The notes under the pieces are model-generated. The model had not been told where the DNA came from. It saw nothing but the letters and a program-made list of their open reading frames with translations, and did not search any database. DNA of 32,000 bases from Candidatus Saccharimonadota bacterium (GTDB taxonomy: Archaea > Nanohalarchaeota > Nanosalinia > Nanosalinales > Nanosalinaceae): positions 270,001 through 302,000 of the forward strand of contig CP012986.1 of assembly GCA_001761425.1 (NCBI GenBank), in the 5' to 3' direction. Shown one piece after another: positions 2 through 18,911 of this stretch. Each line of letters starts with the position of its first letter. The first letter of the stretch is position 1. Position numbers and translations under genes: made by a program.

Positions 2-1186
2 GGTACAGCAGATGTAGATCAGGCAGTAGAGCTTACTGGAGGTTCTGACTTCAGCTTCGATACCAACCAGGCTGGAGAGACAGTAATCGAGACAAGAACT
101 CTACAGAGCAACGCAGATGTCTCTACACAGATCGGATTCGAGACAACCTGTAATGGCACTACTGAAACTACAAACCCTGCGGACTTCAGCGGAGATTGTA
201 AAGGAATCGACACACGGTACGTCGAGTACTTTGACGATGCAGGACATGAATTTAGTGATTATAGTCATCAATCAGGAACTCCAGTAACCTCTGACCTTCA
301 AACTGCAATTAACAAAGCATCGTCAGGAGACGTCCTAGTTGTAGAAGAAAATGGAGGCTACAATAATGTAACAGTCAACAAGTCTATAACTATTGTAGCT
401 AAGAATCAGGGAGGTCCAACTGTTGATGGATTCGACATTAGTGCCAGTGACGTAACTGTCAAAGGTTTCAACATCACCGATGGATTTGAGGCCCAAAACT
501 CTGGAAACTTTGTAGGAGTCAGAGTAAACAATGACGGCGACAATGCCGTTATTACCCACAACCACATCCACGGTATCAGTGGTTCTGGAGCGACGAAGGG
601 AGTTCAGGTATTCCGGGGCGACGCAGCAGTTAGAAATAACCACATTGAAGGAATTGAATCGACAGGAAGTGGTGCTTATGGGGTACTGGTTCAGCACGAC
701 TCAAAAGATGCGACTGTGTCTCAGAACACTGTTGAAGGAGTAAACGGTGTCTGGGCTTTCGGAGTTGATATTGATGATGCAGCGACAGGTGACGGAACGA
801 CTGGATCGCCAAGCAATGCGTTGGTAGAGTACAACCACATTGACACAGTTACAGGGGATAGTTACCTTGGAACTGCAGTAGGTGTAGAAGCTGCAGCTTC
901 ACCGGTCGATGTTCAAAACAACATCATGCTGACCGCAAGTGACATAGAGAGCAAGAACGATGTCACTGTGAACGCTAGCAACAACTGGTTTGGAACCGAC
1001 GGCATCAATCTAGATCAACAGGATTCAAGCACCATAGATGCCTCATGGGCTGACGCAGACACAACAGTTGAAGCTAACTCTGATGACAAGTTCGGTATTG
1101 TCAACGAGTTCGCTATCAATCTCAAGCCTGACACTTACAGCTTGACTACAAGCATCACTGCAGCAGGAGCTGAAGAAACGCCTTAA
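2..1186 (+). CDS. Cell-surface/secreted protein with right-handed parallel beta-helix (PbH1/NosD-like) repeats; 5' end lies outside the window
   Basis: Frame 2 is open from nt 2 to TAA at 1184-1186. The ORF track only lists the part after internal Met 716. My translation reads GTADVDQAVELTGG...TAINKASSGDVLVVEENGGYNNVTVNKSITIVAKN...VITHNHIHGISGSGATKGVQVF..VRNNHIEGIES..VSQNTVEGVNGVWAFGV..VEYNHIDTV..VQNNIML. This shows the ~22-aa N-x-I/V-x-G periodicity typical of pectate-lyase-like beta-helix surface proteins. The protein is acidic and Thr/Asn-rich. Confidence 0.7.
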   Translation, partial: GTADVDQAVELTGGSDFSFDTNQAGETVIETRTLQSNADVSTQIGFETTCNGTTETTNPADFSGDCKGIDTRYVEYFDDAGHEFSDYSHQSGTPVTSDLQTAINKASSGDVLVVEENGGYNNVTVNKSITIVAKNQGGPTVDGFDISASDVTVKGFNITDGFEAQNSGNFVGVRVNNDGDNAVITHNHIHGISGSGATKGVQVFRGDAAVRNNHIEGIESTGSGAYGVLVQHDSKDATVSQNTVEGVNGVWAFGVDIDDAATGDGTTGSPSNALVEYNHIDTVTGDSYLGTAVGVEAAASPVDVQNNIMLTASDIESKNDVTVNASNNWFGTDGINLDQQDSSTIDASWADADTTVEANSDDKFGIVNEFAINLKPDTYSLTTSITAAGAEETP

Positions 1187-1321: not shown

Positions 1322-1789
1322 ATGAAGTATGCAAAAATCCTGGCAGTTTTCGCAGCACTAGCCCTAGCCGGAGCAGGTTCAGCAACCTTGCTGAATAGTT
1401 TTGGTACGATCAGTGGTACTGCTGATGTTAGGCCTGCTTTGAATATTACGGATGTAGGTAATGTTTCGAATGAGGAGGAGTATGTTAATCTGACTAGTCA
1501 GACTTCTGTTTCGGTTGATATTTCGCATCTAAGTATCGCTGATGAAGGAGGAAGTTATGATGTGTTAAATAATTCTGAGAACAGTGTTGTTGAGTTAGGT
1601 GAGAAGGTTGTAGTTACAGATAATTCTGTCTCGACCTCTGAAGTTGAGTCGTGGTTTGGAACTTCGGTACTGCATCTTACAACTGACGATAGTGCTATAG
1701 GTGCAGGCCTTAATCAGAATGTCGATACTGTTTATCTCAAAATCGATGACACAGTTGTAGATTCTTTCAGTTATGGTGATTCATCATGA
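1322..1789 (+). CDS. Small secreted lamin-tail-domain (LTD)-like protein
   Basis: I prefer the ATG at 1322 (MKYAKILAVFAALALAGAGSA, signal-peptide-like) over the alternative start at 1274 given by the track. EEYVNLTSQTSVSVDISHLSIADEGG ... DTVYLKIDDTVVDSFSYGD matches the LTD pattern (E-[FWY]-V-E-L-x-N...VDLSGW.L.D ... GD.V.L.D..G.VVD.V.Y). The stop TGA (1787-1789) overlaps the next ATG (1786-1788). Confidence 0.6.
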   Translation: MKYAKILAVFAALALAGAGSATLLNSFGTISGTADVRPALNITDVGNVSNEEEYVNLTSQTSVSVDISHLSIADEGGSYDVLNNSENSVVELGEKVVVTDNSVSTSEVESWFGTSVLHLTTDDSAIGAGLNQNVDTVYLKIDDTVVDSFSYGDSS

Positions 1790-3606: not shown

Positions 3607-3610
3607 CGGA

Positions 3611-4415: not shown

Positions 4416-5414
4416 ATGGTCTTCGGCTGTTCGCAGTGTAATGAATCCTTTGAGAGCAAGACTGAGTTGAAGGACCATATAGATTCTGTGCATAACTCTG
4501 ATGGAGAACCTGAACTGAACCGGGGTCAGGAAAGTGATGAGGATGAGGCCTCTGAAGAAGATGGTTCGGAGGAGAATCCATGGTCGGACTTTAATGATGG
4601 TGGAAGTGGTTCTCAGAGCGGTGGAGAGAATCCGGATATTGGAGCTGGTGAGAGAGATGGATATCTTCGTACGGGTGTTGACGGCCTTGATGAACTGTTT
4701 GATGATGGTATTCGAGAGGAAAATGTTACATTGATCGCAGGTAATCCTGGTTCAGGTAAATCTATTTTCTCGCTTCAGATCCTGGATCATGCGGCTTCGA
4801 ACGGTGAGAAATGTCTTTACATGAGCTTTGAGGAGTCTCCGGATGCTCTTGTAAGCCACATGGAGGATTTTGGCTGGGATGCCGATGAGCATATCGATAA
4901 CGGTAATCTTGTTATTGAAACGTATGATCCATTTAATGTCTCCCGTACGGTGGAGGCCTTGTTCAGAAAACAGAGTGGGGAGCTTGAGATAGATACTAAA
5001 CCTTTGATCTTCGGTGATATGGACCAGGAGGAGGATGAATTTGACCGTGTGGTGGTTGACTCGCTTTCAGCTATCTCTGCGGGTTTCGGAGCTGATTCCA
5101 AGAACTACAGGCTGTATATAAGAGAACTGTTCAATCTTTTCAGGGAGATCGGTGTCACCGCTTTCGTGATCGCCGAGTCCCAGACCATACCTGATAAGAT
5201 CACTGAATCAGGCCAGGCAGAGTTCCTGGCGGACGGCGTGGTCCTGATGTACAAGCAGATGTCTTCCAGAGGAATACAGATCTACAAGATGCGTGGATCT
5301 AATTTTGAGGAGAAGATAGCGCCGATGACCATCGAAGGTGGGGTAGGCCTCAACGTAAGGCCTGACGACAAATTCTTTGGAAGCGGAAATGACAGCAGTG
5401 GCGGAATGTTTTAG
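4416..5414 (+). CDS. C2H2 zinc-finger fused to a KaiC/RecA-superfamily ATPase (COG0467-like)
   Basis: The N-terminus CSQCNESFESKTELKDHIDSVH has a C-x2-C-x12-H-x4-H pattern. An acidic linker follows, then GVDGLDELFDDGI..NVTLIAGNPGSGKSIF (Walker A at 4740-4763), CLYMSFEES, and a Walker-B-like RVVVDSLSAI. Confidence 0.75.
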   Translation: MVFGCSQCNESFESKTELKDHIDSVHNSDGEPELNRGQESDEDEASEEDGSEENPWSDFNDGGSGSQSGGENPDIGAGERDGYLRTGVDGLDELFDDGIREENVTLIAGNPGSGKSIFSLQILDHAASNGEKCLYMSFEESPDALVSHMEDFGWDADEHIDNGNLVIETYDPFNVSRTVEALFRKQSGELEIDTKPLIFGDMDQEEDEFDRVVVDSLSAISAGFGADSKNYRLYIRELFNLFREIGVTAFVIAESQTIPDKITESGQAEFLADGVVLMYKQMSSRGIQIYKMRGSNFEEKIAPMTIEGGVGLNVRPDDKFFGSGNDSSGGMF

Positions 5415-6733
5415 TCAAATCTGATCTGCTCTTTCAGATATTCTTTCAGGGTCTTCCTGTTTTTTCCCTGCCTCTCAGCTTTAAGCAAAGCCCTGTAATC
5501 TGGGTTTTCAAGGCCTTCTATCTGATCTCTGGCTTCTCCCACGGTCTCATTCTTCAGAAGCTCTATCTGGTCATCGCTCGTCTCCACATCGTCAAGATCG
5601 ATCTCTACTCTATCTTTGAGGAATTCTTTGAGCGTCTTCCTGTCCTTATTTTGGCTTTCGATCTCCAGTAAAGCCCTGTAATCAGGATCTTCGAGGCCTT
5701 TGATCTCGTCTTTTGCTTCATCGACAATGTCTTTCTTCAGGATCTCCCTGTATCTTTCACTGGTTTCTGACTGTCTTCTGTCGTTGATTCTCTCCAGGCT
5801 TCCTTTGATTTCTCCTGTCTCTTCCATAACCTGTCCTCTGGCCTGGAATTCGTCGCTTCTTTCCTTGATTTCTGGAGAGATAACTGGGAGGCCTTTGGTG
5901 CTTTCTAGACGTGATTCTATCTCGTTTATGTCCTGTTCTGTATCTCTTTTCATTTCCTGGAATTTTTCCGTTCTCGTCCTGAAGGCTATCTTCGAACCTT
6001 TGCCTTTGACGTAGTATTCCTGCTGGGCCTGTTCTATCATATCTTCGATAACTTGTTTTTTCTCTATAAGGTTCTCTCTTCTGGATTCCAGTTTCCACAA
6101 TCTGTATTCTTTGAGGAATACTGCGGATAAAGCGATGAAAATGATAGAGGCCATTGAAAGTTTTATCCAGTTGTTTGCGGCGTAATTAGCTGACTGCTGG
6201 TAGAGAACTATTATGTTCTGTCTCTGTGCCGAGGTGAAGGCCTGTACCTGTGTCTGTATGGATTTTGCGTCGGATATCTCGCTGTAGACGTTTTCTACCT
6301 GTCCTTCGGCTTCTTCAAATCTCTGGTTGTGGAAGGTCTGGTTTAGGTCGTTGAAAGCAGTTTTTACTCCTGAAAGGTTGAGTTCCTGCTCTTCAAGTTC
6401 CTCTATTCTTTCCTCCAGTGAGTTTATCCTGTCGTTTACTCTCAATGCGGTCTTTTTGATGTCTTTGATCTGTGATGTAAGCTCTCTGGTCCTTGAAAAA
6501 TCTGGTTCGGCATCCTGATTTTCTGCCAGGTTTTTCTGGGCCTGGAAGCTCTGGTTGGCAGTACTTAACAGGCTTTCAACTCTTTCTGTCGGTATGTTAC
6601 TGTTGTTCATCTCTTGGATTGTCTGTTCTGCCTCTGTTAACTCATTTCTGATCTCTGTATGGTTTTCTGCTGCGGAGGCTGTAGAAACTAGTACTAGAAC
6701 GATGGAAAGTATAATTATGGTTTTTTTCAGCAT
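5411..6733 (-). CDS. Bitopic coiled-coil membrane protein; stand-alone paralogue of the giant protein's stalk/TM/tail
   Basis: I prefer the start at 6733 (MLKKTIIILSIVLVLVSTASA), which is preceded by AGGTGA 5 nt upstream. The track's start at 6793 would overlap the giant gene by 56 nt. The protein has a signal/TM segment, a helical ectodomain, a second TM (6113-6169) and a charged cytoplasmic tail with two 61-aa-period repeats. Confidence 0.75.
   Translation of the reverse strand: MLKKTIIILSIVLVLVSTASAAENHTEIRNELTEAEQTIQEMNNSNIPTERVESLLSTANQSFQAQKNLAENQDAEPDFSRTRELTSQIKDIKKTALRVNDRINSLEERIEELEEQELNLSGVKTAFNDLNQTFHNQRFEEAEGQVENVYSEISDAKSIQTQVQAFTSAQRQNIIVLYQQSANYAANNWIKLSMASIIFIALSAVFLKEYRLWKLESRRENLIEKKQVIEDMIEQAQQEYYVKGKGSKIAFRTRTEKFQEMKRDTEQDINEIESRLESTKGLPVISPEIKERSDEFQARGQVMEETGEIKGSLERINDRRQSETSERYREILKKDIVDEAKDEIKGLEDPDYRALLEIESQNKDRKTLKEFLKDRVEIDLDDVETSDDQIELLKNETVGEARDQIEGLENPDYRALLKAERQGKNRKTLKEYLKEQIRFD
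5414..5722 (-). repeat. Two tandem copies (61-codon period) of an ..EA[KR]D[EQ]I[KE]GLE[DN]PDYRALL..E.Q.K.RKTLKE[FY]LK.. motif
   Basis: Protein units lie at aa 358-402 and 419-460 of the 460-aa track ORF. The repeat is also visible in DNA: aaagccctgtaatc..g.t.ttc.aggcct appears near 5490 and again near 5670. Confidence 0.8.
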
Positions 6734-9700: not shown

Positions 9701-12700
9701 TTACCTGTGCTTTGTCTGTGTCGTTGAATGTGAATGTGGTGTTGACTTTTTCTTCGGGCTTTAGCCAGGTGGTTTTTGATGCGTTTACGGTGTAGGAGCA
9801 TTTGGCTTTTTTGGATCCTGTGTATGTGGTGTCTATCTTCTTTTCTACTGTTTTGTTGTTGTTTCCGTGCTGTATAAGTGCTTCGCAGTTGTTTTTGAGG
9901 TCTTTTTCTCCGTTTGGGTCCTGGGTTACTGTTGATACTGTGTATGCGTGTTCTCCAGTGATGTTTTCTATTTCCTGTCTTTTTGCTATCTCTGGCGGCG
10001 AGTTCTGGATTGGAAGTGTTTCTGGTGATTTGTTTTCTTGGCTGAGTGTGTTGTACTCGTCTACTATCTGTAGTGAAAGATTCCAGTGCTGGCCTTTTTC
10101 AGTATCTGCTGGTGTTACGGTGTCTGAAGTTATTGTGCTGGAGTTTGACTTCCATTCGTAGAAGCTGTTTGTGATTTGATCTTCTTCAGGATCCTGGACG
10201 GTGTAGCTCACGTTGAGTGTGTCTTCTGTGGTCGGTTGGTCTGGTTTGAGGTTTATTGAGGTTATTACTGGTGCTCTATTGGGTATGGTGTTTGATACTG
10301 TGCTTGAGTATGCTTTAAGGCCTTGTTCGTCTCTGGCAATTATCTGGACTGAAACTGTTTCTCCTACCTCGAATCCGTTTGTACTGGAGTTTATGTTTGA
10401 GTAGTTCGCCCAGGCGTATTCGTCTCCATCTTCACTGAAATTTTCTGTGTATCTAGTTGTGTTCTCCCCGTCATCTGCTATCACTGTGTAGTTGTCGAGG
10501 TCGCTGTCTCCGTTGAGATCTCTTATCTTTGCTGAGATGTTGAATCCGTGTTCGTTTTTCAGATTGCTGGTTTCTGTTCCTCTGGTGATCTCAGGGTCGG
10601 CGTTGCCGACTTTGAACTGGTCTGTCAGGGTAGAGTTCTCGAAGCTGTCGCTCGCTTTGAATGTCCAGTTGTAGGTTTCCAGTGATTTTCCGTAGAACGC
10701 AGATGAGTTCCATGTCTCTCCTGAGGTTGAATCTATTTTCTCATCGACAATTTTCTGAGGTGAGCTCTGGTTCCACACTTCGTAGAATGTGGCAGCGAGC
10801 GGATTGTCCGTTGCTGTGACGTTTGCTATCAGTTTGATCCATTCTGCTTCCTCACTTACTGATTCATTGATCTCTACAGATTCTATCCTTGGCTCCTGGT
10901 TCATGTGGAATGAGGCATTAGTATCTCTGCCGGTACAGCCCCAGTTATCACAGGCGAGAAGGTCTATTACGTAGTCCTCGTTGTCCTGAAGGTTGACGTT
11001 GTTCCCTCCGATTTCAAGTTCATCCGGCTGCGTATAATCTGTTGAGCTGATCTCTGTTCTGTTCTCCACGGTGAGAGGGTTTTGACTTGTTCCCAGGTAG
11101 GCCTTGACTGTGAGGTTATCACCATCTTTGTCGGAGGGATTAGTCCAGTTTATGTCGAATGTGTGGTTGACTACGTAGTTCTGGTTTCCGACCTCGAGAT
11201 CAAGGTTCTGAGGAAGTTCAGGTACATGGTTTGGAATCGAGTTCTCTGTGGAAGAACTTGCGGAGGCTCCGGATTTGTCTATCGCTTCCGCGTCAATGCT
11301 GAGTGTTTCCTCGACTTCGAAGCTTTTGAAGTAAGTCGAGTTTATGTTCGAGTAGTTCAGTGCTGCTTCGTCCTCTCCTCCGAAGCTGCGGTTTACTGAG
11401 GCCTTGATTTCTTCCTGGTTTCCGTCTCCGTCGCTTACTGTTATGTTGAAGTGTTCTATATTGATTGCTCCGTCAGCGTCAGTTGCTTTGGCGGAGATGT
11501 TGAACTTGTGTCCTTTATCGTAGTTAGCTGTGCTCAGGCCTGTTATTTCCGGTTGCTGGTTATTGACTGTTACTGTCCCTGTGGTGCTTGTTGGCTGGTA
11601 TCCATCGCTCACATTTACCGTGTAGTTGTAGGTGGTTTCTGCCTTTGTCTCCCACTTATCGGAGTTCCAGAGGCCTTTGTTTAGTGATCCGTTTGTGTTG
11701 CTGTAGATCTGTGTTCCTGCGGTCTGGTTGTAGACTGTGAAGTTTACCCATTCAATACTGTCCTGACTGTCCGTTATATTGGCCTCCAGATTCAGACTGT
11801 CTGAGCCGGTTATCGAGGAACTATTGGTTTCCACACTTTCTATGAAAGGCTCTTGGTTCATGGTGAATTCGATGTTGTCGGTATATCCGCTGCATCCATA
11901 CGGGTCACAGGCCTTTAATGTGACGTTGTATGTGTCACCGTCCAGTATCTCGACGTTCTGGCCTAGTGTTAGTTTGTTGTCTTGTGTTGTGGTGTCGTCT
12001 AGTTCCTGAGGGTTTGGCGAGGTTTCTGTGTAGGCTTTGACTGTTATCCGGTCTTGTTCGGGGTCTGTGGGTGTTGTCCAGTTTATTTCTGGTGTGTGGT
12101 CTATTACGTGGTTTAGATCAGCTTTTTCCTGGAGGAAGTGCGTCATGTTAGGTGTTTTCGGTTTACCTGGTACTTCGTTGGGTATGGTGTATGACCTTGT
12201 TGGAGTCTCTGCTGTGGCGCCTGCGTCGTCTCTTGCCGTTATTGTTGTCTCTATGTCGTCTCCTACGCTGAAATTTTCTATCGAGGTGTTTACGTTCGAG
12301 TACGTTATTGAGGCCTCGGTGCTGTCTCCGAATTCTGTATCTGTGATGCTTTCCTCAACTGTCTCCTGGTTTCCGTCTCTGTCTTCAAGTACCAGTGTGT
12401 AGTCTAGGAGGTCTCCGTCTCCATCATCGTCTTTTACAACTGCTGATACATTGAAAGCGTGTTTTCCAGTAATGTCGTCAAAACTTGGGCCTGATACTAT
12501 CTCAGGGTTTGAGTTATTTGTTTTGAAAGTTCCTGAGGTCTCTGAGGTCTCATAACTATCAGTTGTGTTTACAGTCCAGTTGTAGGTGGTTCCTGTGGAT
12601 ACTTTCCATGTATCTGAGATCCAGTTGCCGTTCTGGTTTATCGAACCGTTCACAGAGTCTACCAGTACGTCGTTGTCACTCTGGTTGTATGCTGTGAAGT

Positions 12701-15700
12701 TTGCTCTTTCGATGCTGTCTGATTCTGCATCCGAAATGTTGGCTGTTAGATGTACTTCGTCTCCATCACTGAGTTCTGAGCTTGATTTGTTCAGTTCTAC
12801 GGAGTTGAAGGTTGGTTCCTGGTTTGTATGGAACTCCTGGATGACTCTCTTGGATGTACAGCTTCCGAACGTGTCACAGGCCTCTACTGAGAAGTTATAG
12901 GTCGTCCCGTCATTTAGGTTTACCTGCTTCCCTAATTCAATTTCTCTGCTGGTGGTGTAGTTGTTTTCCGTTACCAGTATATCTCTGTCAACTGCTGTAG
13001 GATCTGCTGAAGATCCGGTGAAGACCTTGAAACTTAGATTGTCGTTGTCGGGGTCTGAACCTGTTGTCAGTTTTATCTCTGGGTTTTGATCTACTACATG
13101 CTGGAGGTCTGTTCCAGGTTCAAGTAGCTGGCTCATGTTTATGTTGGTAGCTGGGTCAGGCGCGTGGTTCGGTATGTTGTGGCTTTCGAAGTTCTGGGTT
13201 GTTTCTCCAGATTTATCTCTGGATATTACTGTTACGAAGACTGTCTCCCCTACCTCGAATCCCTGGATAGATGAGTTTACGTTTGAGAAGTTTGCTGCGA
13301 CCTCTTCAGGGCCTCCGTGGCTCTCGGTTACGTCTCTGGTATATTCGTATACTTTTTCTCCATCATTTAGCTGAATCGTGTAGTTAGCGAAGTTTACTTG
13401 GCCGTCCACATCGTTTGCCACCGCTGACACGTTGAATTTATGGCCCGTGCTGTAATCCTGGAAGCTAGGTCCAGACACCATTGAGGGAGCGGTGTTAGGT
13501 ACGCTGAATGAACCCGTACCTACTGCATGCTGGTATCCATCTGTCGCGTTTACTGTCCAGTTGTAAGATTTCGAGGCAAAGACCTCAAATTTCTCCGAGT
13601 TCCATTCTCCATTCTGGACTTCGCCAGAAACATCTGTAAGAACCTTGGTGTTATCATCCTCGTTCCACACCTTGAACTCAACATTAGATATACTATCCTC
13701 GTTATCAGTTACATTGGAAAGCAGTTTCACAAAGTCACTTCCTGTAGGGCTTGAGTCATTCAAAGCGGTATTTTCGATGACCGGTTCCTCATTCATACGG
13801 AACTCGATATTATCCGACCTGCTACTGCATTCGTAGCTGTCACATGCTATCAGTGTCACATTGTAGCTGTTTCCGTCGCTTAGGCTAACGCTGTTTCCGA
13901 GAGAAAAACTAGATGAGCTTCCGTAGTTTGTCCCGATGTTTAGGGAGTTATCGAGTGATGTCGGACTTGATGACTGCCCTGTGTAGGCCTTTACCGTTAC
14001 TGAGTCGTCTTCTGCGTCATCAGGGTTACTCCAGTTTATTTCTGGTGTTTGGTCTATTACGTGGTCGATATCGGCATTCTCATTCAGGAAGTATGTCATA
14101 CTGAGATTTTGAGGTATTTCTGGGGCCTTGTTCGGTATCCTGTTAGTTCCTGAAGTCGTTGCTGTCTTCCCTTCTTTGTCGATGAACTTTATGGATGCGC
14201 TGATCTCTTCTTTGACCTCGAATCCCTGGATAGATGAGTTTACGTTTGAAAAGTTTGCGGCTACTTCGCTGCTGGTTCCATAGGCCTTGTTTACCTGTCT
14301 GGAGAAGGTTTCCTGGTTTCCATCCCCATCTTTCAAAGTTATATTGTACTTGTCGATATTGATCTCTCCATCGGGTTCGTAAGCGACCGCTGATGCGTTG
14401 AACTTGTGCGCGTTCGAGAAATCTGTTGCTGTCAGGCCTTGAACTATTTCCGGTGCGCTGTTGGACACGCTGAATGTCCCGGTGTTACTGCTAGTCTGGT
14501 AGCCGTCAGATGTGTCTAGAGTCCAGTTGTAGGTGTTTCCTGCTAATACCTTGAAACTGTCGGATTTCCAGAGGCCTTTGTTTAGTGATCCGTTTGTGTT
14601 GCTGTAGATTTGTGTTCCTGCGGTCTGGTTGTGTACTGTGAAGTTTGTCCATTTTATATTGTCCTGGTTGTCTGTGATATTCGCTTCAAGATCTACAATA
14701 TCGTTTCCTGTAGGACTTGAGTCATTGAGGCCTACTGAATTGATTGAAGGTTCCTGGTTCACAGTGAATTCGGTGTTAGTTGTGTAGTTGCTGCATGCGT
14801 ACTGGTCGCAGGCTTTCAGGCTTACATTGTAGGTAGTTCCGTCGTTTAGGCCTATGTTTTGACCTAGTGTTAGTTTATTGCTGGAGTTGGTTTGGTTGTC
14901 TAGCTGGGTGGGGTTTGATGACTGTCCTGTGTAGGCCTTGACAGTTATTTGGTCTCCTTCTGGGTCTGTAGGGTTGGTCCAGTTTATCTCCGGTGTCTGA
15001 TCCAATAAATGATCGAGATCTTCTTTGCTGCTGAGGAAGTATGACATGTTGATATCTGTCGGTTTATTTGGTGCTTCGTTCGGTATTTCCTGTGTTCCTG
15101 TTGCATTCTGTGTCTCTGCTCCGTGTCTATCTGAGAACTTTACATTTACGGTGATTGATTCGCCTACAGTGAAGTTTTCTATCGAGTTGCTGATTGATGT
15201 GTTACATGAGGCCTGGTCGGTTGTTCCGAAGTTCTGGTTCAGAGGTCCTGAACCTGATATTATCTCTGTGTTTCCGTCTCCGTCCTCTGCGTATACTGTG
15301 CATGAGTTGATTTCAGTAGAGTCGGAATCGCTGTCAGCTCCTACTGCTGATACATTAAACGCGTGTTCTCCCGAGGCTTTCTCAACTGTGGGGCCAGTCT
15401 CTACTGTCGGATTGTGGTTTGGAATTGTTTCGCTGTAGATGGAAGTTGATTTGGTGGCTCCGGCTACATCAGTGAAGTCTGCGTGTACCTGGATGCTTTC
15501 TCCGACACTGAAGCCTGTGAGTGAGTCCGTGATGGTTGCGTTACATGAGGCCTGGTCGGTTCCTCCATAAGCGGTGTCAAGAGAGCCTAAAGTATTGGTG
15601 TTGCTGTCTCCGTCTTCCGCGTAAACTGTGCAGGACTGTATTTCGGAGCTACCTTGATCTCTGTCGTAGCCTACCGCCGAAAAATTGAATTTGTGATCTA

Positions 15701-18700
15701 GGCCTGATACCTTTCTGTCTGTGTTGTTTATCTGTGGCTGGTTGTTCGGAAGACTTTTCGTCCTGTTCTCGGTTGTCTTGGTGTATCCATCATTGTCTGT
15801 AAAGTTGAACTTGAAAGTTATTTCATCTTGATCTGGATAGCTTACTCCGAATAGCTCTCTACTGATTGTTGCGTTACATGAAGCAGTCTCTGAGTCGCCG
15901 AAGGCCTTGTTCAGTGATGCTGGTGTCCCTCCGCCGTTCTCTACCGATGAGTAACCCGTAAATCTATCTGTGTGGTAGTAAGCTGTACAGTCCTGGAACT
16001 GGCCGTCTGAATCTGCGCCTCTAGCCGTCGCAGATATATTGAATTTGTGCTGATCGCTGAAAGGATTCTCTGTGCTGTTTCCGACGACGAATGATTCCTC
16101 GTAGTGCAGATCGGTTCCGAAGATCTCCCATGTATCCTTGATATCTGTACTGTAGCCATCGAAGGAGAAATTGACTTTTTTCGAGTTCTCAAGGCCTGAA
16201 ATACTGTAATTGTTCAGGCCGTCGCTTACAGCAATGTTTTCCGTATTCAAGATGTTATTGGATGAGTCTAGGGAGTATACTGTGGCTGATAGAGATGTTT
16301 CTGCGGATATATTCGCGTCAAGTGCTATGTTGTTCCATGATTTCTTTCCCTCAGGTTTGATTGTGCTTGAGTTGTATGATCCGTCGAACTGACCGTCCGA
16401 ACCGTTGAAGAAAAGTCTTTCTATCTCGCTGGAGCTTAGTGAATTGTTGTAGGCCTTTACCTCGTCTATGCTCGCGTTTAACTTGCCGTTTGCTATCTTG
16501 AAGTCCTTTGAATTGGAGTTGACTGTTCCGAGACCTGTGCTTTTTGATTCGGTCAGCGTTGAATTGAAGTAGAGTTCTGCGGTCCCTGTGGACGCGTTGT
16601 ATGTCGCAGTGATCATCGTCCAGCTTCCCCGTTTCAGGCCTTGAACTCCCCTGTTCAGTATGCTCTGGCCGTTTATCCTGAGGACAGGTATGCTGTTGGA
16701 GGTTGATCCTGCGGAGATTCCTGGTGATTGATCTACTCCGGTGACTGATGTGCCGTCGTTTCTTTCCACTGGTTGTTCGTTTCCGCTCAGGTCTGAGAGG
16801 TAGAGTGTATCTGAGTTGCTGTTGATATGGATTATTTCCTCTGACGGGGTTCCTGTCCGGTCCACGGTTCCGAGAGGAGAGTTTTCTGCGTTTTCGTAGC
16901 TTGAGTCGATTGTATTCATTGATCCGGAGTCAGGTACCAGTGCGAGGTTGGAGTTGCCGTTTACGATGGGAACCTCTACTTCTCCGTCGTTGTCCAGGTC
17001 TGAAGGAGCTCCCATCTTCTTGACTGCTGATGAGGGGTTGTATATCAGTGTTCTGAGGGAGTTGCCGAAGTTTGTGTTTCCAGTGTCTGTGAGGCCTCCG
17101 CTGTCGTATTTTAGTACATTTCCGCTTCCATCTCCGATAAAGAATTTTTCTGATGAGGCCTTGTATTCGATTGAGTATATTGTGCTTCCTGTGGGTTTTC
17201 CAAGGTCTGTTACGGTTCCGTCTTCCTGGATTTTGATGAGGTATCCTCCGCCTCCTACCAGCCAGAATGAGTCGCCGTCTACTGTTCCCCATTCGATGGA
17301 GTAGATGGTTTTTCCGTTGTTTGTTATTGGGTTGTTGGTGTTGGGCTGGCTCCAGTCTGAGCCATCGTAGATCCCGATGTTTCCTCCTCCGCCTCCTCCC
17401 AGGTAGTGGGTTCCGTTGAAACCGATTTTTCTGACGGGGTTTCCGAAGACAGGGTCGCTTATCCTGGTGAATCCTGTGCTGTCGAATTTGGATAGGCGGG
17501 CTTTTGGAGTTCCTCCTGTTCTACTGTGTCCGACAAGCCAGTAATCTCCGATCTGGTCGCTGCCGTATGAATGAGCTGAGCCATACATTGATGGACCGCT
17601 TTTTACTCCTCCGTGATCTGTCCATGTTCCTGACTGAAGCGAATATGTGTATACAGAAGTTCCTGCTGTAGCAAGTAAATGAGTTTTGTTGGAGGAAAGA
17701 GAGCGTACCTGATTTGCCGGTCCTCCTGCCAGGTCTGTAAACGATCCATCCCATTTTGTGACCTCTCCACCGCCGCCTCCGAGGAAATAACCTGAGTTCG
17801 TGTCTGTACCTGAGTAAATACTGTTTATGGGAGCGTTATTCTTACCTGATAGATCCGTCCATGAACCATCTTCATATTTTTCAACCTCCGGTCCCGCTGT
17901 TCCGCCTATCCAGTACTGGAAATTATTCTCTCCAGCTACAGATTTTCCCGTACTCTGTATCTGCGTTCCATTCCACCAGCTAACCGTCTGCGATCCGTCA
18001 AGGTAGATTACATCTTTCTGTCCATCCCCATCGTAATCTGCAACTCCGGAGACTGCAGTAGCAGTTATCCCGCTGCCAACTACAGAAGCACTCCCTGAAT
18101 AGAAATCATACTCTGTAAGTTCTGAAGTTGAAGAATCGATAAAATATATCTCCTCTCTTTCATCGTCATCGAAGTCTCCGGCACCGAGCGTCGAGCGTGA
18201 GGCCTTTGCACCGGAAGCAAGATTCGTCGTGCTACCGCTTTCATCAACTGTATTGAGGTTTCCGGATCCGTCCACATAAGGTATTTCGATCGATCCATCC
18301 TGGTCGTAGTCTGCTAGAGGCCCTATCACGCTAGTTTCTATTCCCAGATTGCTTATATGGCCTGTAGAGTTCATCAGTTTCAGGTTAGAGTTCTGTGAGA
18401 ATGCTATGTAGTTCTCATCCTCGATCCTGAGGCTGTACGAGTCTCCTTTACCGATTATTTCAGGGTTGCTGCTCATGGAAGGCCTTACGCCCAGAGTTTC
18501 ATCCGGTTTTACCCACGCGTTCAATGTGAATCCTTCGTTCAAATCCAGTGAAGAGCTGTCAGGTATTACTACTTCATCTGCGCTTCCCTGAAACTCCATG
18601 GCATTGGTTCCAAATATTCCTGGAACGTCTCTCAATGCTCCGTATATTTCTCCGCTATTTCCTGTTCCTGAGTAATCGGTTACTCCTCCTGAGGTCGTGT

Positions 18701-18911
18701 CGAGTCTCCAGAATCCTTGTAGCTCCTCAGTGTCTGTACTGTTTTGATATCCTATGCCTAGATCGCCTGAATTATCTTTTCTATCGGCTGTGGAAAGGTC
18801 AAAGAGGCCTTCCTGCCAGTCGCTCTGTGAAGTGAACGTTGTTGTGCCTGCGAGCACCGCTGGCACCAGTATCACTGTCAGAAGTGAGAGAAAAAGGTTC
18901 TTTTTTTTCAT
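6738..18911 (-). CDS. Giant (4,057 aa) multidomain cell-surface protein / putative adhesin with a C-terminal TM anchor and cytoplasmic coiled-coil tail
   Basis: Uninterrupted 12,174-nt ORF. Signal peptide MKKKNLFLSLLTVILVPAVLAG. LamG/ConA-like motifs (GFTLNAWVKPD ... SWTMITATYN..AELYFN..IDEVKAYNNSLSSSEIERLF). FG-GAP-like D-x-D-x-DG repeats (ADYDQDGSIE, GAGDFDDDEREE, ADYDGDGQKD, DLDNDGEVE). Seven propeller-like blades, more than 20 Ig/FN3-like modules, and CARDB-like modules. The C-terminal part is a helical stalk, a TM helix (7176-7253) and a 145-aa cytoplasmic tail. N-x-S/T sequons are very dense. Confidence 0.9.
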   Translation of the reverse strand: MKKKNLFLSLLTVILVPAVLAGTTTFTSQSDWQEGLFDLSTADRKDNSGDLGIGYQNSTDTEELQGFWRLDTTSGGVTDYSGTGNSGEIYGALRDVPGIFGTNAMEFQGSADEVVIPDSSSLDLNEGFTLNAWVKPDETLGVRPSMSSNPEIIGKGDSYSLRIEDENYIAFSQNSNLKLMNSTGHISNLGIETSVIGPLADYDQDGSIEIPYVDGSGNLNTVDESGSTTNLASGAKASRSTLGAGDFDDDEREEIYFIDSSTSELTEYDFYSGSASVVGSGITATAVSGVADYDGDGQKDVIYLDGSQTVSWWNGTQIQSTGKSVAGENNFQYWIGGTAGPEVEKYEDGSWTDLSGKNNAPINSIYSGTDTNSGYFLGGGGGEVTKWDGSFTDLAGGPANQVRSLSSNKTHLLATAGTSVYTYSLQSGTWTDHGGVKSGPSMYGSAHSYGSDQIGDYWLVGHSRTGGTPKARLSKFDSTGFTRISDPVFGNPVRKIGFNGTHYLGGGGGGNIGIYDGSDWSQPNTNNPITNNGKTIYSIEWGTVDGDSFWLVGGGGYLIKIQEDGTVTDLGKPTGSTIYSIEYKASSEKFFIGDGSGNVLKYDSGGLTDTGNTNFGNSLRTLIYNPSSAVKKMGAPSDLDNDGEVEVPIVNGNSNLALVPDSGSMNTIDSSYENAENSPLGTVDRTGTPSEEIIHINSNSDTLYLSDLSGNEQPVERNDGTSVTGVDQSPGISAGSTSNSIPVLRINGQSILNRGVQGLKRGSWTMITATYNASTGTAELYFNSTLTESKSTGLGTVNSNSKDFKIANGKLNASIDEVKAYNNSLSSSEIERLFFNGSDGQFDGSYNSSTIKPEGKKSWNNIALDANISAETSLSATVYSLDSSNNILNTENIAVSDGLNNYSISGLENSKKVNFSFDGYSTDIKDTWEIFGTDLHYEESFVVGNSTENPFSDQHKFNISATARGADSDGQFQDCTAYYHTDRFTGYSSVENGGGTPASLNKAFGDSETASCNATISRELFGVSYPDQDEITFKFNFTDNDGYTKTTENRTKSLPNNQPQINNTDRKVSGLDHKFNFSAVGYDRDQGSSEIQSCTVYAEDGDSNTNTLGSLDTAYGGTDQASCNATITDSLTGFSVGESIQVHADFTDVAGATKSTSIYSETIPNHNPTVETGPTVEKASGEHAFNVSAVGADSDSDSTEINSCTVYAEDGDGNTEIISGSGPLNQNFGTTDQASCNTSISNSIENFTVGESITVNVKFSDRHGAETQNATGTQEIPNEAPNKPTDINMSYFLSSKEDLDHLLDQTPEINWTNPTDPEGDQITVKAYTGQSSNPTQLDNQTNSSNKLTLGQNIGLNDGTTYNVSLKACDQYACSNYTTNTEFTVNQEPSINSVGLNDSSPTGNDIVDLEANITDNQDNIKWTNFTVHNQTAGTQIYSNTNGSLNKGLWKSDSFKVLAGNTYNWTLDTSDGYQTSSNTGTFSVSNSAPEIVQGLTATDFSNAHKFNASAVAYEPDGEINIDKYNITLKDGDGNQETFSRQVNKAYGTSSEVAANFSNVNSSIQGFEVKEEISASIKFIDKEGKTATTSGTNRIPNKAPEIPQNLSMTYFLNENADIDHVIDQTPEINWSNPDDAEDDSVTVKAYTGQSSSPTSLDNSLNIGTNYGSSSSFSLGNSVSLSDGNSYNVTLIACDSYECSSRSDNIEFRMNEEPVIENTALNDSSPTGSDFVKLLSNVTDNEDSISNVEFKVWNEDDNTKVLTDVSGEVQNGEWNSEKFEVFASKSYNWTVNATDGYQHAVGTGSFSVPNTAPSMVSGPSFQDYSTGHKFNVSAVANDVDGQVNFANYTIQLNDGEKVYEYTRDVTESHGGPEEVAANFSNVNSSIQGFEVGETVFVTVISRDKSGETTQNFESHNIPNHAPDPATNINMSQLLEPGTDLQHVVDQNPEIKLTTGSDPDNDNLSFKVFTGSSADPTAVDRDILVTENNYTTSREIELGKQVNLNDGTTYNFSVEACDTFGSCTSKRVIQEFHTNQEPTFNSVELNKSSSELSDGDEVHLTANISDAESDSIERANFTAYNQSDNDVLVDSVNGSINQNGNWISDTWKVSTGTTYNWTVNTTDSYETSETSGTFKTNNSNPEIVSGPSFDDITGKHAFNVSAVVKDDDGDGDLLDYTLVLEDRDGNQETVEESITDTEFGDSTEASITYSNVNTSIENFSVGDDIETTITARDDAGATAETPTRSYTIPNEVPGKPKTPNMTHFLQEKADLNHVIDHTPEINWTTPTDPEQDRITVKAYTETSPNPQELDDTTTQDNKLTLGQNVEILDGDTYNVTLKACDPYGCSGYTDNIEFTMNQEPFIESVETNSSSITGSDSLNLEANITDSQDSIEWVNFTVYNQTAGTQIYSNTNGSLNKGLWNSDKWETKAETTYNYTVNVSDGYQPTSTTGTVTVNNQQPEITGLSTANYDKGHKFNISAKATDADGAINIEHFNITVSDGDGNQEEIKASVNRSFGGEDEAALNYSNINSTYFKSFEVEETLSIDAEAIDKSGASASSSTENSIPNHVPELPQNLDLEVGNQNYVVNHTFDINWTNPSDKDGDNLTVKAYLGTSQNPLTVENRTEISSTDYTQPDELEIGGNNVNLQDNEDYVIDLLACDNWGCTGRDTNASFHMNQEPRIESVEINESVSEEAEWIKLIANVTATDNPLAATFYEVWNQSSPQKIVDEKIDSTSGETWNSSAFYGKSLETYNWTFKASDSFENSTLTDQFKVGNADPEITRGTETSNLKNEHGFNISAKIRDLNGDSDLDNYTVIADDGENTTRYTENFSEDGDEYAWANYSNINSSTNGFEVGETVSVQIIARDEQGLKAYSSTVSNTIPNRAPVITSINLKPDQPTTEDTLNVSYTVQDPEEDQITNSFYEWKSNSSTITSDTVTPADTEKGQHWNLSLQIVDEYNTLSQENKSPETLPIQNSPPEIAKRQEIENITGEHAYTVSTVTQDPNGEKDLKNNCEALIQHGNNNKTVEKKIDTTYTGSKKAKCSYTVNASKTTWLKPEEKVNTTFTFNDTDKAQVTSNTKTGKIPNNKPSIENLKAPENNSKTNKTEITFKWEASDPENDNLEYKLEIFNETQKINTSTRLTQPQETIKGLKSSNLSWKVTATDRFDGKKLTTTTSDRSNVLADSKAPVPVKGPQIEVLNSTRTAPLQNQSVKCYSKWSDNFELGDAEIYDNSTEENTSISKQEFSSGWANRTIEASELKAGNRKCSFQVSDHLNNPGSSRISFDVEDIEKPNITGFNHTPETQKDLDPNKSIQVNATITDNLELDNVSLLYRKKGGKWKQGDLTSSGDLYTGNFTPGDDGETYEFKYEANDTYGNEISKKKSVNISWDYTWSRTPAEYSGSSTLENNLIDYTPTKIENTGDFPLKYSITKVEDPNLELQTDRTNLTVPAQESEALDIEAYLEDTSADNEGIYSFQIKMEPYNETSSPESEGIEGQATFTLDAAFFSIEKGDGFPLSINQGADNVELPVDTTNIGTEKSESTEIDYSLPSEWSLSSTSKPKTQNLENISVDEKTDSSVSINVPEDASTGTKNINITTSTGNRSFIQTFQIEVSENRTTTIIEEDSGGAITTPSDGQTNQEQVSEASDRIFNTTKNFELVRGQDQNFSVVFTNPTEFNLSNITVEASGFRSQYLDLKKEYIDSLEVNDSENISVEITAPDFFASSSFDIDFQISGTGYDPEAFINPYFDFTLNKQVGLEIHEISETAAQNLTEEMKGLKKKLNSSGIPDTEIEKILSDAEEDIQEGEYGTVQDRYEKAENIYETATDTQEGLEELGKQIDSAEMQGLDVTQAKRMANLAEEALERGAYDTSMNRLEEARNLYQLETKGEVNYIYLIASNWKKILLGLLLASVTGIIAYYRYRLYRIESRLEEIDQEENSIHEMKKQDQKEAFEQGDMSINEYEDAAEDYNEDLIQLIEERTKLESKKANITNFREEDSLRQQRDKLKDIIRDTQEDYVKGDIADTGMYETKVEELTEKLSTIESRLAEKEAKSRHKSSRIPFR
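11667..11749 (-). repeat. Near-identical DNA patch (copy 2) shared with 14568-14650
   Basis: ccagaggcctttgtttagtgatccgtttgtgttgctgtagat[c/t]tgtgttcctgcggtctggttgt.. has 5 mismatches over 83 nt against the copy 2,901 nt away. Flanking DNA of the same modules is much more diverged. Both copies encode AGTQIYSNTNGSLNKGLW. Confidence 0.85.
14568..14650 (-). repeat. Near-identical DNA patch (copy 1) shared with 11667-11749
   Basis: See the partner entry. The offset of 2,901 nt equals three super-repeat units. Confidence 0.85.

Follow-up and report, generated by a model that had tools for sequence, protein, structure and literature searches.

A candidate envelope-spanning module of a giant surface protein, its headless paralogue and a KaiC-like ATPase in nanohaloarchaea and other archaea

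The genome of Nanohaloarchaea archaeon SG9 ("Ca. Nanopetramus") exhibits, within the 32,000-nucleotide stretch analysed here (the window), a giant surface protein gene (AOV94611.1) next to the gene of a headless paralogue of its membrane anchor (AOV94610.1) and that of a zinc-finger KaiC-like ATPase (AOV94609.1). The same three genes recur together in many distantly related archaea, and the three proteins thus very probably act together as one surface-to-cytoplasm module; judged from sequence, their co-function is well supported. With moderate confidence, given for the explanation as a whole, we take the positions 3052-18911 as the conserved core of the locus, in which the giant, the paralogue and the ATPase, together with helper proteins, would form one conserved envelope-spanning module through predicted contacts. 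All nine ORFs of the segment 2-18911 were found as the first-pass annotation had given them. It described the segment as encoding almost only envelope proteins; a single gene fills 12.2 of the 19 kb, so that the claim has to be carried by the eight others.

Table 1. Features of the SG9 locus, with positions counted in the window
Feature	Position	Strand	Basis
Inactivated KaiC-like protein, 184 aa, DUF7504/DUF835 type, AOV94606.1	3052..3606	-	sub-threshold KaiC match, no Walker A
Small membrane protein, 101 aa, AOV94607.1	3611..3916	-	ORF
Small membrane protein, 108 aa, AOV94608.1	3920..4246	-	three hydrophobic segments
C2H2 zinc-finger / acidic linker / single-domain KaiC-like ATPase, 332 aa, AOV94609.1	4416..5414	+	Pfam, motifs
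C2H2 zinc finger of the ATPase, aa 5-26 (CxxC...HxxxH)	4428..4493	+	in 19/19 nanohaloarchaeal orthologues examined
Headless stalk paralogue, 440 aa, AOV94610.1	5411..6733	-	signal peptide, TM, homology to giant C-terminus
Two ~45-aa repeats, paralogue cytoplasmic tail	5426..5743	-	repeat pattern
Giant surface protein, 4,057 aa, AOV94611.1, AQV86_01640	6738..18911	-	ORF, Pfam, literature listing
~410-aa C-terminal anchor module of giant	6741..8000	-	homologue alignment, HMMER clusters
Giant cytoplasmic tail, aa 3914-4057, helical	6741..7172	-	homologue alignment, conservation
Giant TM helix, aa 3897-3913, ILLGLLLASVTGIIAYY	7173..7223	-	hydropathy 2.08 over 17 aa
NPCBM_assoc/NEW3 beta-sandwich of giant, aa 3519-3592	8136..8357	-	Pfam 25-29 bits vs cut-off 24.4
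Five tandem three-domain (B-C-A) units of giant, aa 1278-2878	10278..15080	-	internal repeat comparison

The giant has an N-terminal signal peptide, a variable adhesin-like ectodomain and a conserved C-terminal anchor module. The B-C-A units of the ectodomain (317-331 aa each, 33-66% identity) exhibit a weak fn3 signal, and three additional A domains are found at aa 947-1278. Our Pfam scans returned only weak matches, to FG-GAP, fn3 and NPCBM_assoc/NEW3, the last lying directly upstream of the anchor module; the ConA-like assignment of this protein comes from SI Table S2 of Hamm et al. 2019 (PMC6642349). A sequence search of the PDB with the whole giant as query gave no match, and Pfam and NCBIfam scans for a serine protease region identified no peptidase family. 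The giant contains a single C-terminal hydrophobic helix; a hydrophobic segment at this position is kept in all homologues and aligned with the TM helix of the paralogue. The 144-aa tail that follows, with the conserved motif ...F(E)...MS..EYE.A..DY...Q..Y..G...YE.KV..L...LS.IE., showed no match to an NTPase even at E <= 10.

The paralogue gene is translationally adjacent to that of the giant, its true start being the ATG at 6733 (440 aa) rather than the TTG at 6793. The protein consists of a signal peptide, a helical ectodomain of ~165 aa, a TM helix (aa 189-207), a cytoplasmic helical hairpin and a variable tail. Its reading as a stalk paralogue of the giant, proposed in the first-pass annotation, was borne out by comparison with the giant's C-terminus: BLASTP (E 2e-8) aligned the two TM helices in register, and hhalign gave a profile-profile probability of 99.2% (E 2.2e-19, 220 columns); this paralogy is firm. 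Also as proposed there, both large membrane proteins carry substantial cytoplasmic parts, 144 aa in the giant and 233 aa in the paralogue. Fusions of the paralogue behind the anchor module, with consistent topology, occur in six cluster representatives, and a fusion is found as well at a further locus (L076). An AlphaFold model of paralogue aa 1-300 is all helical (pLDDT 83.5), the ectodomain stalk being modelled as a compact bundle of about 140 aa; a Foldseek search of the PDB with this model retrieved no known fold (best E 0.14). The repeats in the cytoplasmic tail follow the pattern ...TV.EA.DEI.GLE.PDYRALL..E..(N/G)K.RKTLKE(F/Y)LK..., match no Pfam family even at E <= 10, and were modelled at pLDDT 61 without a structural match. 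An assignment of these repeats to HeH/SAP-like DNA-binding motifs was dropped, being unsupported by family or structure matches.

The anchor module comprises, in order, a beta-sandwich, a helical ectodomain carrying ..LETxGExN.., a TM helix and a helical cytoplasmic tail of ~145 aa. The family was defined by an exhaustive HMMER search; a word-indexed search with the last 558 aa of the giant returned 2 matches, its candidates being swamped by coiled-coil words. With the giant's module as query, 549 protein clusters contain the module at E<=1e-10, and 258 clusters match it nearly over its full length at E<=1e-30. The proteins that carry it are large (449-5,389 aa). The module is C-terminal in all 145 family members examined and is followed by a median of 3 residues; where cytoplasmic extensions are present in these members, they consist of a fused paralogue, additional TM segments or low-complexity sequence rich in Lys. 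No KaiC fused to the tail was found among the best 145 members. The cytoplasmic tail is the best-conserved region of the anchor (2.24 bits/column vs 1.95-2.0 in the other regions), which implies a conserved cytoplasmic partner.

The KaiC domain of AOV94609.1 gives a full-length match to PF06745 (aa 85-317, E 1e-42, 146 bits vs a cut-off of 26.6). The Walker A sequence GNPGSGKS (aa 109-116) is kept in all orthologues, and the Walker B/catalytic motifs SFEES and VVVDSLS are readable in the sequence. The best PDB matches are to KaiC (E 4e-45); DnaB_C, RadA and RecA are matched too, far more weakly. The gene is convergent with that of the paralogue, the two stop codons overlapping, so that in the window it would be transcribed separately from the giant-paralogue unit, itself predicted to be a single transcript. 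A TATA-like box at 4386-4393 predicts a leaderless KaiC transcript, and the two transcripts would overlap by their 3' ends at 5411-5414. The same type of C2H2 finger is present at the N-terminus of the KaiC protein here and in the paralogue tail of other lineages (12-13 of 22 residues identical). Zinc fingers are found in the module in nanohaloarchaea only, and are absent from it elsewhere. In a neighbor-joining tree the linked KaiC proteins of all lineages group together, a result of low power as nearly all the sampled sequences were linked ones.

Several more specific assignments of this ATPase were considered and rejected. It is not a circadian KaiC, having one domain in its 332 aa and a circ_KaiC score of 71 bits vs a cut-off of 546; no kaiB-like gene occurs within the window. 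The archaellum protein ArlH (FlaH) and the gas-vesicle protein GvpD resemble it as single-domain KaiC-like ATPases, each dedicated to one envelope or organelle structure. However, the NCBIfam ArlH score is 39 bits vs a cut-off of 215 with no arlI/arlJ nearby, and the GvpD_P-loop match is marginal (24.9 vs 24) with no gvp genes nearby. Membership in an anti-phage defence system was rejected as well: in a PADLOC scan the ATPase exhibited only a P-loop-level match to mad8 (22 bits), and the remaining five cassette proteins matched none of the PADLOC models.

The neighbouring AOV94606.1 had been described as a P-loop-less KaiC-like protein, and we concur. It scores 25.3 bits against KaiC (cut-off 26.6) and E 0.0016 against DUF7504, without a Walker A motif. 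In a family of 15 sequences around it, DUF7504 is matched by 13, KaiC by 12, DUF835 by 9 and DUF7090 by 8, and GxxxxGK[ST] is absent from all 15 aligned members; an hhalign comparison with the adjacent KaiC protein was not significant (E 0.059). This protein is usually kept in nanohaloarchaea. Of the two small membrane proteins, AOV94608.1 is encoded by the first gene of the unit divergent from the ATPase gene. AOV94607.1 and AOV94608.1 are homologous neither to each other nor to the 2-TM protein of freshwater archaeal loci; they are kept in about half of the nanohaloarchaea and are not conserved outside them.

Conservation of the neighbourhood was the check that the first-pass annotation had put forward, and its expectation was confirmed: the core trio of giant, paralogue and KaiC co-occurs both in nanohaloarchaea and in distant archaeal lineages. 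It is present in nine nanohaloarchaeal lineages and also in about 15 metagenome lineages, and the lineages with the trio include freshwater archaeal metagenome contigs (probably DPANN) and a MAG labelled Nanoarchaeota. Flanks and orientations differ between loci; the trio stands in other flanks or another order in Ca. Nanoanaerosalina (L007), in Hydrothermarchaeales (L017) and at loci L008, L020 and L023. The three genes often lie on one strand, in several lineages with gaps of 6-110 bp, and many loci read, on one strand, giant, paralogue, small 2-TM protein, KaiC and then housekeeping genes. The linkage holds down to about 45% identity for KaiC and 25-30% for the anchor.

Co-occurrence was counted on de-replicated loci flanked by 2.5 kb of sequence or more, KaiC being scored within 5 kb. 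KaiC stands alongside the paralogue at 22 of 27 loci and is found at 1 of 8 loci lacking the paralogue (Fisher p = 8e-4); the tally is thus 22 loci with both, 5 with the paralogue only, 1 with KaiC only (the L076 fusion) and 7 with neither. Restricted to loci found via the anchor module, the count is 15 of 26 with KaiC within 5 kb. The loci having a paralogue and no KaiC within this distance are L016, where a different ATPase follows in place of KaiC, L021, where a KaiC cluster lies about 7 kb off, L030, L050 and L083. About a quarter of the anchor-bearing proteins have neither partner nearby, and for two close KaiC homologues (L019, L022) no anchor or paralogue occurs in the sequence available. 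Other neighbours at the loci of relatives include response regulators, PAS kinases, Roadblock-domain small GTPases, CheC-like proteins and TrmB regulators.

These counts bear on the alternative that the adjacency is merely inherited gene order and that the KaiC, inactivated KaiC and membrane proteins constitute a general signalling unit. Synteny is high overall among nanohaloarchaea; since Hel308, FBPase, ThyA and SHMT likewise retain their order, part of the linkage signal there may reflect no more than synteny. The opposite strand of KaiC in the window, the abundance of KaiC-like genes in archaea (proteomics of Ca. Nha. antarcticus detected three members of the family) and the existence of anchor loci without KaiC and of KaiC homologues without anchor would agree with it. 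Against this, the linkage is kept despite unrelated flanks, changed order and changed orientation, and KaiC tracks the paralogue as counted above. By a rough estimate assuming a few KaiC-like genes per megabase, chance would place one within 5 kb in a few percent of cases, vs about 60-80% observed. We thus hold this alternative to be improbable.

The first-pass annotation had also counted the three proteins encoded at 2-3045 as members of the locus, and this did not hold up. The beta-helix protein exhibits only a sub-threshold NosD-like match (37 bits), the LTD protein scores 32.6 bits vs a cut-off of 34.3, and the acidic protein (419 aa) combines a signal peptide with a TM helix at its C-terminus. 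That the whole 19 kb, including these three, is one co-functioning host-contact island could be argued from the contiguity of the genes, all predicted to be exported or anchored. However, phmmer searches of about 90 related loci revealed no homologues of the three, except that the acidic protein has a weak partial match in L010, the closest relative, and in L003, L005 and L009 the Hel308 helicase or DHFR directly adjoins the cassette where the three genes would stand. By these comparisons the three proteins are lineage-specific bystanders, neighbours and not members; the island is very improbable, the missing conservation having already largely refuted it.

A different role for the conserved core, which we consider unlikely, would be that of a main structural surface-layer or envelope protein similar to tetrabrachion, the paralogue and KaiC serving its biogenesis, spacing or positioning instead of host adhesion or signalling. 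A helical stalk with a TM helix and a beta-sandwich is a typical archaeal envelope design. The giant gene occupies a fixed position flanked by housekeeping genes in all nanohaloarchaea examined, the broad anchor family (549 clusters) extends to MAGs labelled Hydrothermarchaeales, which are not known as episymbionts, and at two loci (L020, L021) a ParA/MinD-like positioning ATPase is encoded between giant and paralogue. Like the tetrabrachion-type stalked S-layer proteins, the giant is a large extracellular protein on a helical stalk with a C-terminal TM helix; unlike tetrabrachion, its stalk is a compact bundle and not a 70-nm coiled coil, and the module adds a tail conserved on the cytoplasmic side, a paralogue and a partner ATPase. 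The ectodomains of the relatives vary strongly in length and content, even between close relatives (1,665 to 4,062 aa), and several anchor-bearing proteins can stand in tandem (L069), which argues against a structural surface layer. The tandem Ig/FN3-like arrays and putative lectin/propeller-type heads of the ectodomain fit an adhesin better than a lattice-forming protein.

The giant itself is not new: AOV94611.1 is listed as a SPEARE-type protein in SI Table S2 of Hamm et al. 2019 (PMC6642349), with no P-loop NTPase entry. The first-pass annotation had regarded a linked ATPase module as a new functional association, and in the searchable literature we found no description of a giant anchor linked with a KaiC cassette and with a headless paralogue. 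Related nanohaloarchaeal giants have a P-loop ATPase fused after the TM helix (PMC6642349, PMC10266531), which makes the combination of a surface giant and a cytoplasmic ATPase a recurring design. The SPEARE giants (Hamm et al. 2019, PMC6642349; Reva et al. 2023, PMC10266531) come from the same organism group as the SG9 giant, and share with it a length of several thousand residues, an N-terminal export signal, candidate lectin/propeller/Ig-like adhesion domains, NPCBM_assoc, one C-terminal TM helix, a cytoplasmic C-terminus and a P-loop ATPase associated on the cytoplasmic side. In contrast, the SG9 giant has no fused ATPase (ResIII, DUF87, VirB4/TraG-like), the feature by which the SPEARE group is defined, and no protease region, ending in its 144-aa helical tail; its ATPase is separate, KaiC-like and of a different P-loop lineage, and a headless paralogue accompanies it. 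The SG9-type anchor module occurs far more widely than do the SPEARE giants with a fused ATPase.

A further alternative is a transfer machine akin in principle to the SPEARE giants, in which KaiC, as a RecA/DnaB-superfamily ATPase, and the finger- or repeat-bearing tails would handle nucleic acid or an effector that crosses the envelope at the contact site. For SPEARE giants, with their VirB4/TraG- or HerA-like ATPases after the TM helix, a role in secretion or in the handling of DNA has been suggested (PMC6642349, PMC10266531). The weaker matches of the KaiC domain to DnaB_C, RadA and RecA point the same way, the C2H2 fingers of KaiC and of paralogue tails could bind nucleic acid, and nucleotide synthesis is missing in nanohaloarchaea. 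However, each protein has one TM helix with no channel-forming component, the zinc fingers are confined to nanohaloarchaea, the KaiC match is far above any helicase or translocase match, and no nuclease, pilus or secretion genes were identified in the cassette by Pfam, NCBIfam and PADLOC scans. Such a machine seems to us quite improbable.

For the preferred reading of one envelope-spanning module, we propose the following mechanism. The large surface protein, whose ectodomain is highly variable, would be held in the membrane via its conserved C-terminal anchor. The paralogue, having only the helical ectodomain, TM helix and tail, would be co-expressed from the next gene and most likely pairs with the giant's anchor via the helical and TM segments in which the two are homologous. 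The cytoplasmic tails, being conserved, may then be where a dedicated KaiC-like ATPase with a single domain and intact ATP-binding motifs docks or exerts control. In nanohaloarchaea this ATPase would be assisted by the inactivated KaiC-like protein and the two small membrane proteins. By acting on the tails in an ATP-dependent way, a KaiC ring would link the surface protein with the cytoplasm, either by reporting contact inward or by setting the assembly, position or active state of the adhesin outward. The sequences show the gene content, the paralogy, the breadth of the family, the conserved linkage and the giant-paralogue fusions; the giant-paralogue pairing, the binding of KaiC to the tails, the direction of signalling and any host-contact role are inferred. 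Host attachment, favoured in the first-pass annotation, would be a possible role only, as the module also occurs in the Hydrothermarchaeales MAGs. The most specific form, in which a hexameric KaiC-type ATPase docks on the paired tails and, through ATP binding, hydrolysis or autophosphorylation, switches the adhesin, reports surface or host contact to the cell or does both, in a widespread and previously unrecognised system, is possible but tentative.

Pairs of KaiC and inactivated KaiC have been proposed as archaeal signalling hubs (Makarova, Galperin & Koonin 2017, mBio, as cited in PMC5847659 and PMC6393860). As these hubs are described in the citing papers, the SG9 locus resembles them in its single-domain KaiC-like ATPase paired with a P-loop-less DUF7504/DUF835-type protein and, at the loci of relatives, in the neighbours listed above, from response regulators to TrmB regulators, and differs from them in that the partner is the anchor of a giant together with its paralogue. 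By functional analogy only, the module may also be compared with LapA-LapG-LapD, where the surface state of a huge repetitive adhesin is set from the cytoplasm via a membrane partner with one or two TM passes, and with the integrin alpha/beta heterodimers, where paired TM helices and tails signal both ways. The module is related to neither of these systems in sequence or fold. Its energy or signal would come from a KaiC-type ATPase, and the locus has no genes for a protease, a c-di-GMP receptor or type I secretion.

How hosts are recognised, held and responded to is an open question in DPANN archaea, for which giant surface proteins are the usual suspects, with no known wiring to the cell interior. 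The present analysis defines a conserved anchor module common to hundreds of large archaeal surface proteins, with an obligate-looking headless partner and a dedicated KaiC-like ATPase, and sets AOV94611.1 apart from the ATPase-fused SPEARE giants with which it was once grouped. A vague suspicion of an adhesin becomes a testable three-component system with clear interaction predictions, and the proposed archaeal KaiC signalling network gains a concrete membrane-proximal input or output. If true, the mechanism would represent a KaiC-based archaeal counterpart of integrin- or LapD-type adhesion control, and in DPANN episymbionts the module would be a device sensing and governing the attachment to the host.

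The locus belongs to Nanohaloarchaea archaeon SG9 ("Ca. Nanopetramus"), on a contig of 1.125 Mb. Its proteins match AOV94603-AOV94611 (AQV86_01600-01640) by exact sequence, and ORF listing, translation and family scans bear out all nine genes described in the first-pass annotation (see table). To the right of the giant protein there are only housekeeping genes (DHFR, ThyA, SHMT, dTMP kinase, Nudix proteins, tRNA-Pro and others). Those of the thymidylate cycle flank the giant gene; in one compared locus (L006) ThyX (Thy1) replaces ThyA. An acidic 266-aa protein without annotation lies between DHFR and ThyA, and a secreted, very acidic 318-aa protein without family match lies next to tRNA-Pro. 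In SG9 and L003, the Hel308-type helicase upstream of the locus contains an intein, which includes a LAGLIDADG endonuclease.

The giant (AOV94611.1) was counted among the SG9 "SPEARE" proteins by Hamm et al. 2019 (PMC6642349), a group defined by a conserved cytoplasmic P-loop NTPase following the TM helix, later re-read as VirB4/TraG-like (Reva et al. 2023, PMC10266531). In contrast to these, the giant exhibits neither an NTPase nor a detectable protease in family scans. Its signal peptide is followed by about 945 residues, in which our scans found a weak FG-GAP match alone and Hamm et al. 2019 reported ConA-like lectin, integrin-alpha-like and propeller regions. Then come three "A" domains of about 105 aa, five tandem B-C-A units of about 320 aa (33-66% identity) and more Ig-like sequence, with an NPCBM_assoc domain at aa 3519-3592. 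The final ~410 residues, the anchor module, comprise a beta-sandwich, a helical segment, a 17-residue hydrophobic helix and a 144-residue helical tail. This helix is short (Kyte-Doolittle 1.56 over 19 residues), is kept in all homologues and matches, in alignment, the TM helix of stalk protein AOV94610.1. In SI Table S2 of Hamm et al. 2019, the giant has an N-terminal TM helix only, with aa 28-4057 outside the cell. Judging from the sequence, the C-terminal helix was overlooked there, and the last 144 aa are predicted to be cytoplasmic. Accession numbers and locus tags among the SG9 giants are apparently swapped in the main text of the same paper.

The last 420 residues of the giant were searched exhaustively with HMMER against 1.84 billion cluster representatives. 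This gave 679 clusters at E≤1e-3, of which 549 reach E≤1e-10 and 258 reach E≤1e-30, nearly all matches covering the whole module. Among the best 145 matches with a length of 440 aa or more, the module forms the extreme C-terminus (median of 3 residues beyond it) of proteins 449 to 5,389 aa long (median 1,759). Its most conserved region is the cytoplasmic tail (2.24 bits per column); the beta-sandwich and helical ectodomain reach 1.95-2.0, the TM region 1.56.

Sequence comparison identifies the stalk protein as a true headless paralogue of this anchor (BLASTP E 2e-8, 241 residues; profile-profile probability between the two families 99.2%, E 2.2e-19, 220 columns). An AlphaFold model of its residues 1-300 (alignment of 21 sequences, pLDDT 83.5) predicts an ectodomain of five helices, the fifth continuous with the TM helix, then a cytoplasmic helical hairpin; Foldseek found no solved relative of the model (best E 0.14). 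The distal tail differs among lineages: it carries ~45-aa "PDY...RKTL" repeats, which match no known family, in the window (two) and L006 (three). L003 and L005 have two or three C2H2 zinc fingers there (35 bits, exceeding the Pfam cut-off), and L007, L008 and L009 have neither. In six cluster representatives the paralogue is fused right after the anchor module, with the uniform topology tail, hydrophobic helix, helical ectodomain, TM helix, tail. These fusions argue that giant and paralogue are functionally tied.

The ZnF-KaiC ATPase (KaiC hereafter) accompanies this pair. A search from KaiC orthologues found it convergent with paralogue and giant in four more nanohaloarchaeal lineages (giants of 1,665-4,062 aa). 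Housekeeping order is also kept in those nanohaloarchaea, so that mere synteny could account for part of the linkage there, and the distant loci are the informative cases. Giant, paralogue and KaiC recur in distant lineages (L007 to L023 in the table). A metagenome scan with the anchor module only gave 67 loci, many with giant, paralogue, a small 2-TM protein and KaiC in this order on one strand; unrelated housekeeping genes such as aRF1 and ScpB come next. After clustering at 85% identity and requiring at least 2.5 kb past the 3' end of the giant, paralogue and KaiC are both present in 22 loci, the paralogue without KaiC in 5, KaiC alone in 1 (L076, a giant-paralogue fusion) and neither in 7 (Fisher's exact p = 8e-4). 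In the subset reached via the anchor module, which is free of selection through KaiC, 15 of 26 loci have KaiC within 5 kb: 15/19 with a paralogue, free or fused, and 0/7 without. KaiC-like genes occur at roughly a few per megabase, a rough estimate anchored on the Ca. Nha. antarcticus proteome, in which three KaiC-family proteins were detected, so that chance adjacency would be a few percent. Mere synteny is thus unlikely. The linked KaiCs of all lineages cluster together in a neighbour-joining tree, which has little power because it contains few unlinked sequences. Other lineages add genes: a ParA/MinD-like ATPase between giant and paralogue, DUF7090 with two response regulators downstream of KaiC, or KaiC-Arf/Ras GTPase fusions with Roadblock/LC7 proteins.

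Lacking Walker A, the 184-aa protein falls into the inactivated KaiC-like group; members of its family match DUF7504 (13/15), KaiC (12/15), DUF835 (9/15) and DUF7090 (8/15). It adjoins KaiC in 7/9 nanohaloarchaeal lineages, and relatives lie beside KaiC in L008, L020, L021 and L023. The two small membrane proteins are kept in 4/9 and exhibit no relationship to the 2-TM protein of freshwater archaeal loci. The latter, conserved between paralogue and KaiC (156-200 aa), carries the motif DLAERMIRVEQ..S..F.K...Y..TEYYKS in its cytoplasmic part; aRF1 downstream holds inteins in two freshwater contigs (799 and 509 aa versus 370 aa in L038). The C2H2 finger of KaiC is present in 19/19 nanohaloarchaeal orthologues examined and absent elsewhere. 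The Nanoanaerosalina finger is identical at 12-13/22 positions to the paralogue-tail fingers of other lineages, against 8-9/22 to other KaiC fingers, which suggests that the same small domain was placed on either partner. The stop codons of the convergent KaiC and paralogue genes overlap (TTAG or CTAA type) in the window and at least five other loci, a feature shared by several lineages, leaving no space for separate terminators; their transcripts should therefore overlap at the 3' ends. Sequence reading places TATA-like boxes about 25 nt upstream of the KaiC start and of the divergent membrane-protein start.

The first-pass annotation had joined all of 2-18911 into one candidate host-contact locus. 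The conserved linkage supports joint function for the giant, paralogue, KaiC and inactivated KaiC, with host attachment as a putative role. The beta-helix, LTD and acidic proteins fall outside, being absent at the corresponding position in relatives; about 90 related loci contain no homologue of them, the one exception being the closest relative, where the acidic protein has a weak partial match. The unit that matters spans 3052-18911. At their N-termini, the beta-helix and LTD proteins have in common a signal-anchor and, after it, a 'GT(A/I)..GTADV' segment (phmmer E 1.9e-7), which may be a shared export or processing signal. The acidic protein exhibits a weak PGF_pre_PGF match (E 0.005) and a C-terminus (GPTGFF, hydrophobic helix, basic residues) resembling a PGF-CTERM archaeosortase sorting signal; it is 405 aa in the RefSeq/GenBank model AOV94605.1 versus 419 aa in the JGI call.

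Coordinates and arrangement of features (compared loci in their own coordinates; L001 is the SG9 locus)
Feature	Locus	Position	Strand	Remark
Beta-helix-like exported protein	window	2-1186	+	5' end outside window; NosD-like 37 bits, sub-threshold
LTD protein, signal peptide	window	1322-1789	+	32.6 bits; cut-off 34.3
Acidic protein, 419 aa	window	1786-3045	+	signal peptide, C-terminal TM helix
KaiC-like protein, 184 aa	window	3052-3606	-	P-loop absent
Small membrane protein	window	3611-3916	-	hydropathy
Small membrane protein	window	3920-4246	-	hydropathy
C2H2 finger, acidic linker, single-domain KaiC-like ATPase	window	4416-5414	+	PF06745 E 1e-42; Walker A GNPGSGKS
Stalk protein, 440 aa	window	5411-6733	-	paralogue of giant's C-terminus
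Giant, 4,057 aa	window	6738-18911	-	signal peptide, repeats, C-terminal anchor
C-terminal TM helix of giant	window	7173-7223	-	aa 3897-3913
Thymidylate-cycle cluster	window	19021-27443		
Acidic 266-aa protein	window	19514-20314		
Acidic 318-aa protein	window	29389-30345		
tRNA-Pro	window	30467-30539		
Beta-helix; LTD protein	L001	5449-6771; 6907-7374		
Hel308-type helicase with intein	L001; L003	1290-5168; 5630-9295		1,292 aa; 1,221 aa
Hel308-type helicase without intein	L005; L009	5448-7697; 5537-7789		749-750 aa
ThyX	L006	13082-13689		
KaiC/paralogue stop-codon overlap	window; L003; L005; L006; L011; L023	5411-5414; 10993-10996; 10990-10993; 3686-3689; 12606-12609; 10792-10795		
Ca. Nanoanaerosalina module	L007/L015			KaiC 52% identical; other flanks; paralogue-giant-KaiC
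Module	L008			KaiC 46% identical, divergent from giant-paralogue; further KaiC/DUF7504, TrmB genes close by
Hydrothermarchaeales MAG module	L017			anchor protein, paralogue; then convergent KaiC, KaiC-like protein, receiver protein
GCA_964354285.1 module	L020			one strand: giant, ParA-like, paralogue, KaiC, DUF7090, two response regulators
Metagenome module	L023			1,868-aa protein, paralogue, convergent KaiC, KaiC-GTPase fusions, Roadblock, DUF7504
ParA/MinD-like ATPase	L020; L021	7994-8806; 11494-12303		
DUF7090, two response regulators	L020	10963-12229		
KaiC-Arf/Ras GTPase fusions, Roadblock/LC7	L023	11731-17803		
Freshwater 156-200-aa protein	L035; L038; L042; L047; L049; others	8371-8868; 3204-3725; 3608-4114; 4499-4987; 2407-2970		two TM helices
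Intein-bearing aRF1	L042; L035	5005-7404; 11672-13201		

The locus is best read as a conserved module that spans the envelope. In this reading a variable adhesin-like giant would be held by the conserved anchor module and paired with the headless paralogue, and a dedicated KaiC-like ATPase would serve the conserved cytoplasmic tails. The data show the gene content, the paralogy, the breadth of the family, the linkage and the fusions; from these we infer the pairing, contact of KaiC with the tails, which way signals run and any role in host contact. A structural S-layer role, with KaiC acting in biogenesis, is still in contention. So is nucleic-acid or effector transfer. The neighbours in other lineages (response regulators, PAS kinases, small GTPases with Roadblock, CheC-like and ParA-like proteins) favour signalling or positioning over transport. 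KaiC-like ATPases with inactivated KaiC partners are proposed archaeal signalling hubs (Makarova et al. 2017, as cited in PMC5847659 and PMC6393860). In the papers we searched, no KaiC cassette is described as being linked to a giant surface protein or a headless anchor paralogue. The nearest known kinds of the envelope-spanning module are these hubs and the giant surface proteins that are membrane-anchored and have cytoplasmic ATPases. Since giants with a fused ATPase occur in the same organisms, the combination of a surface giant with a cytoplasmic P-loop ATPase would be a repeated design, here split.
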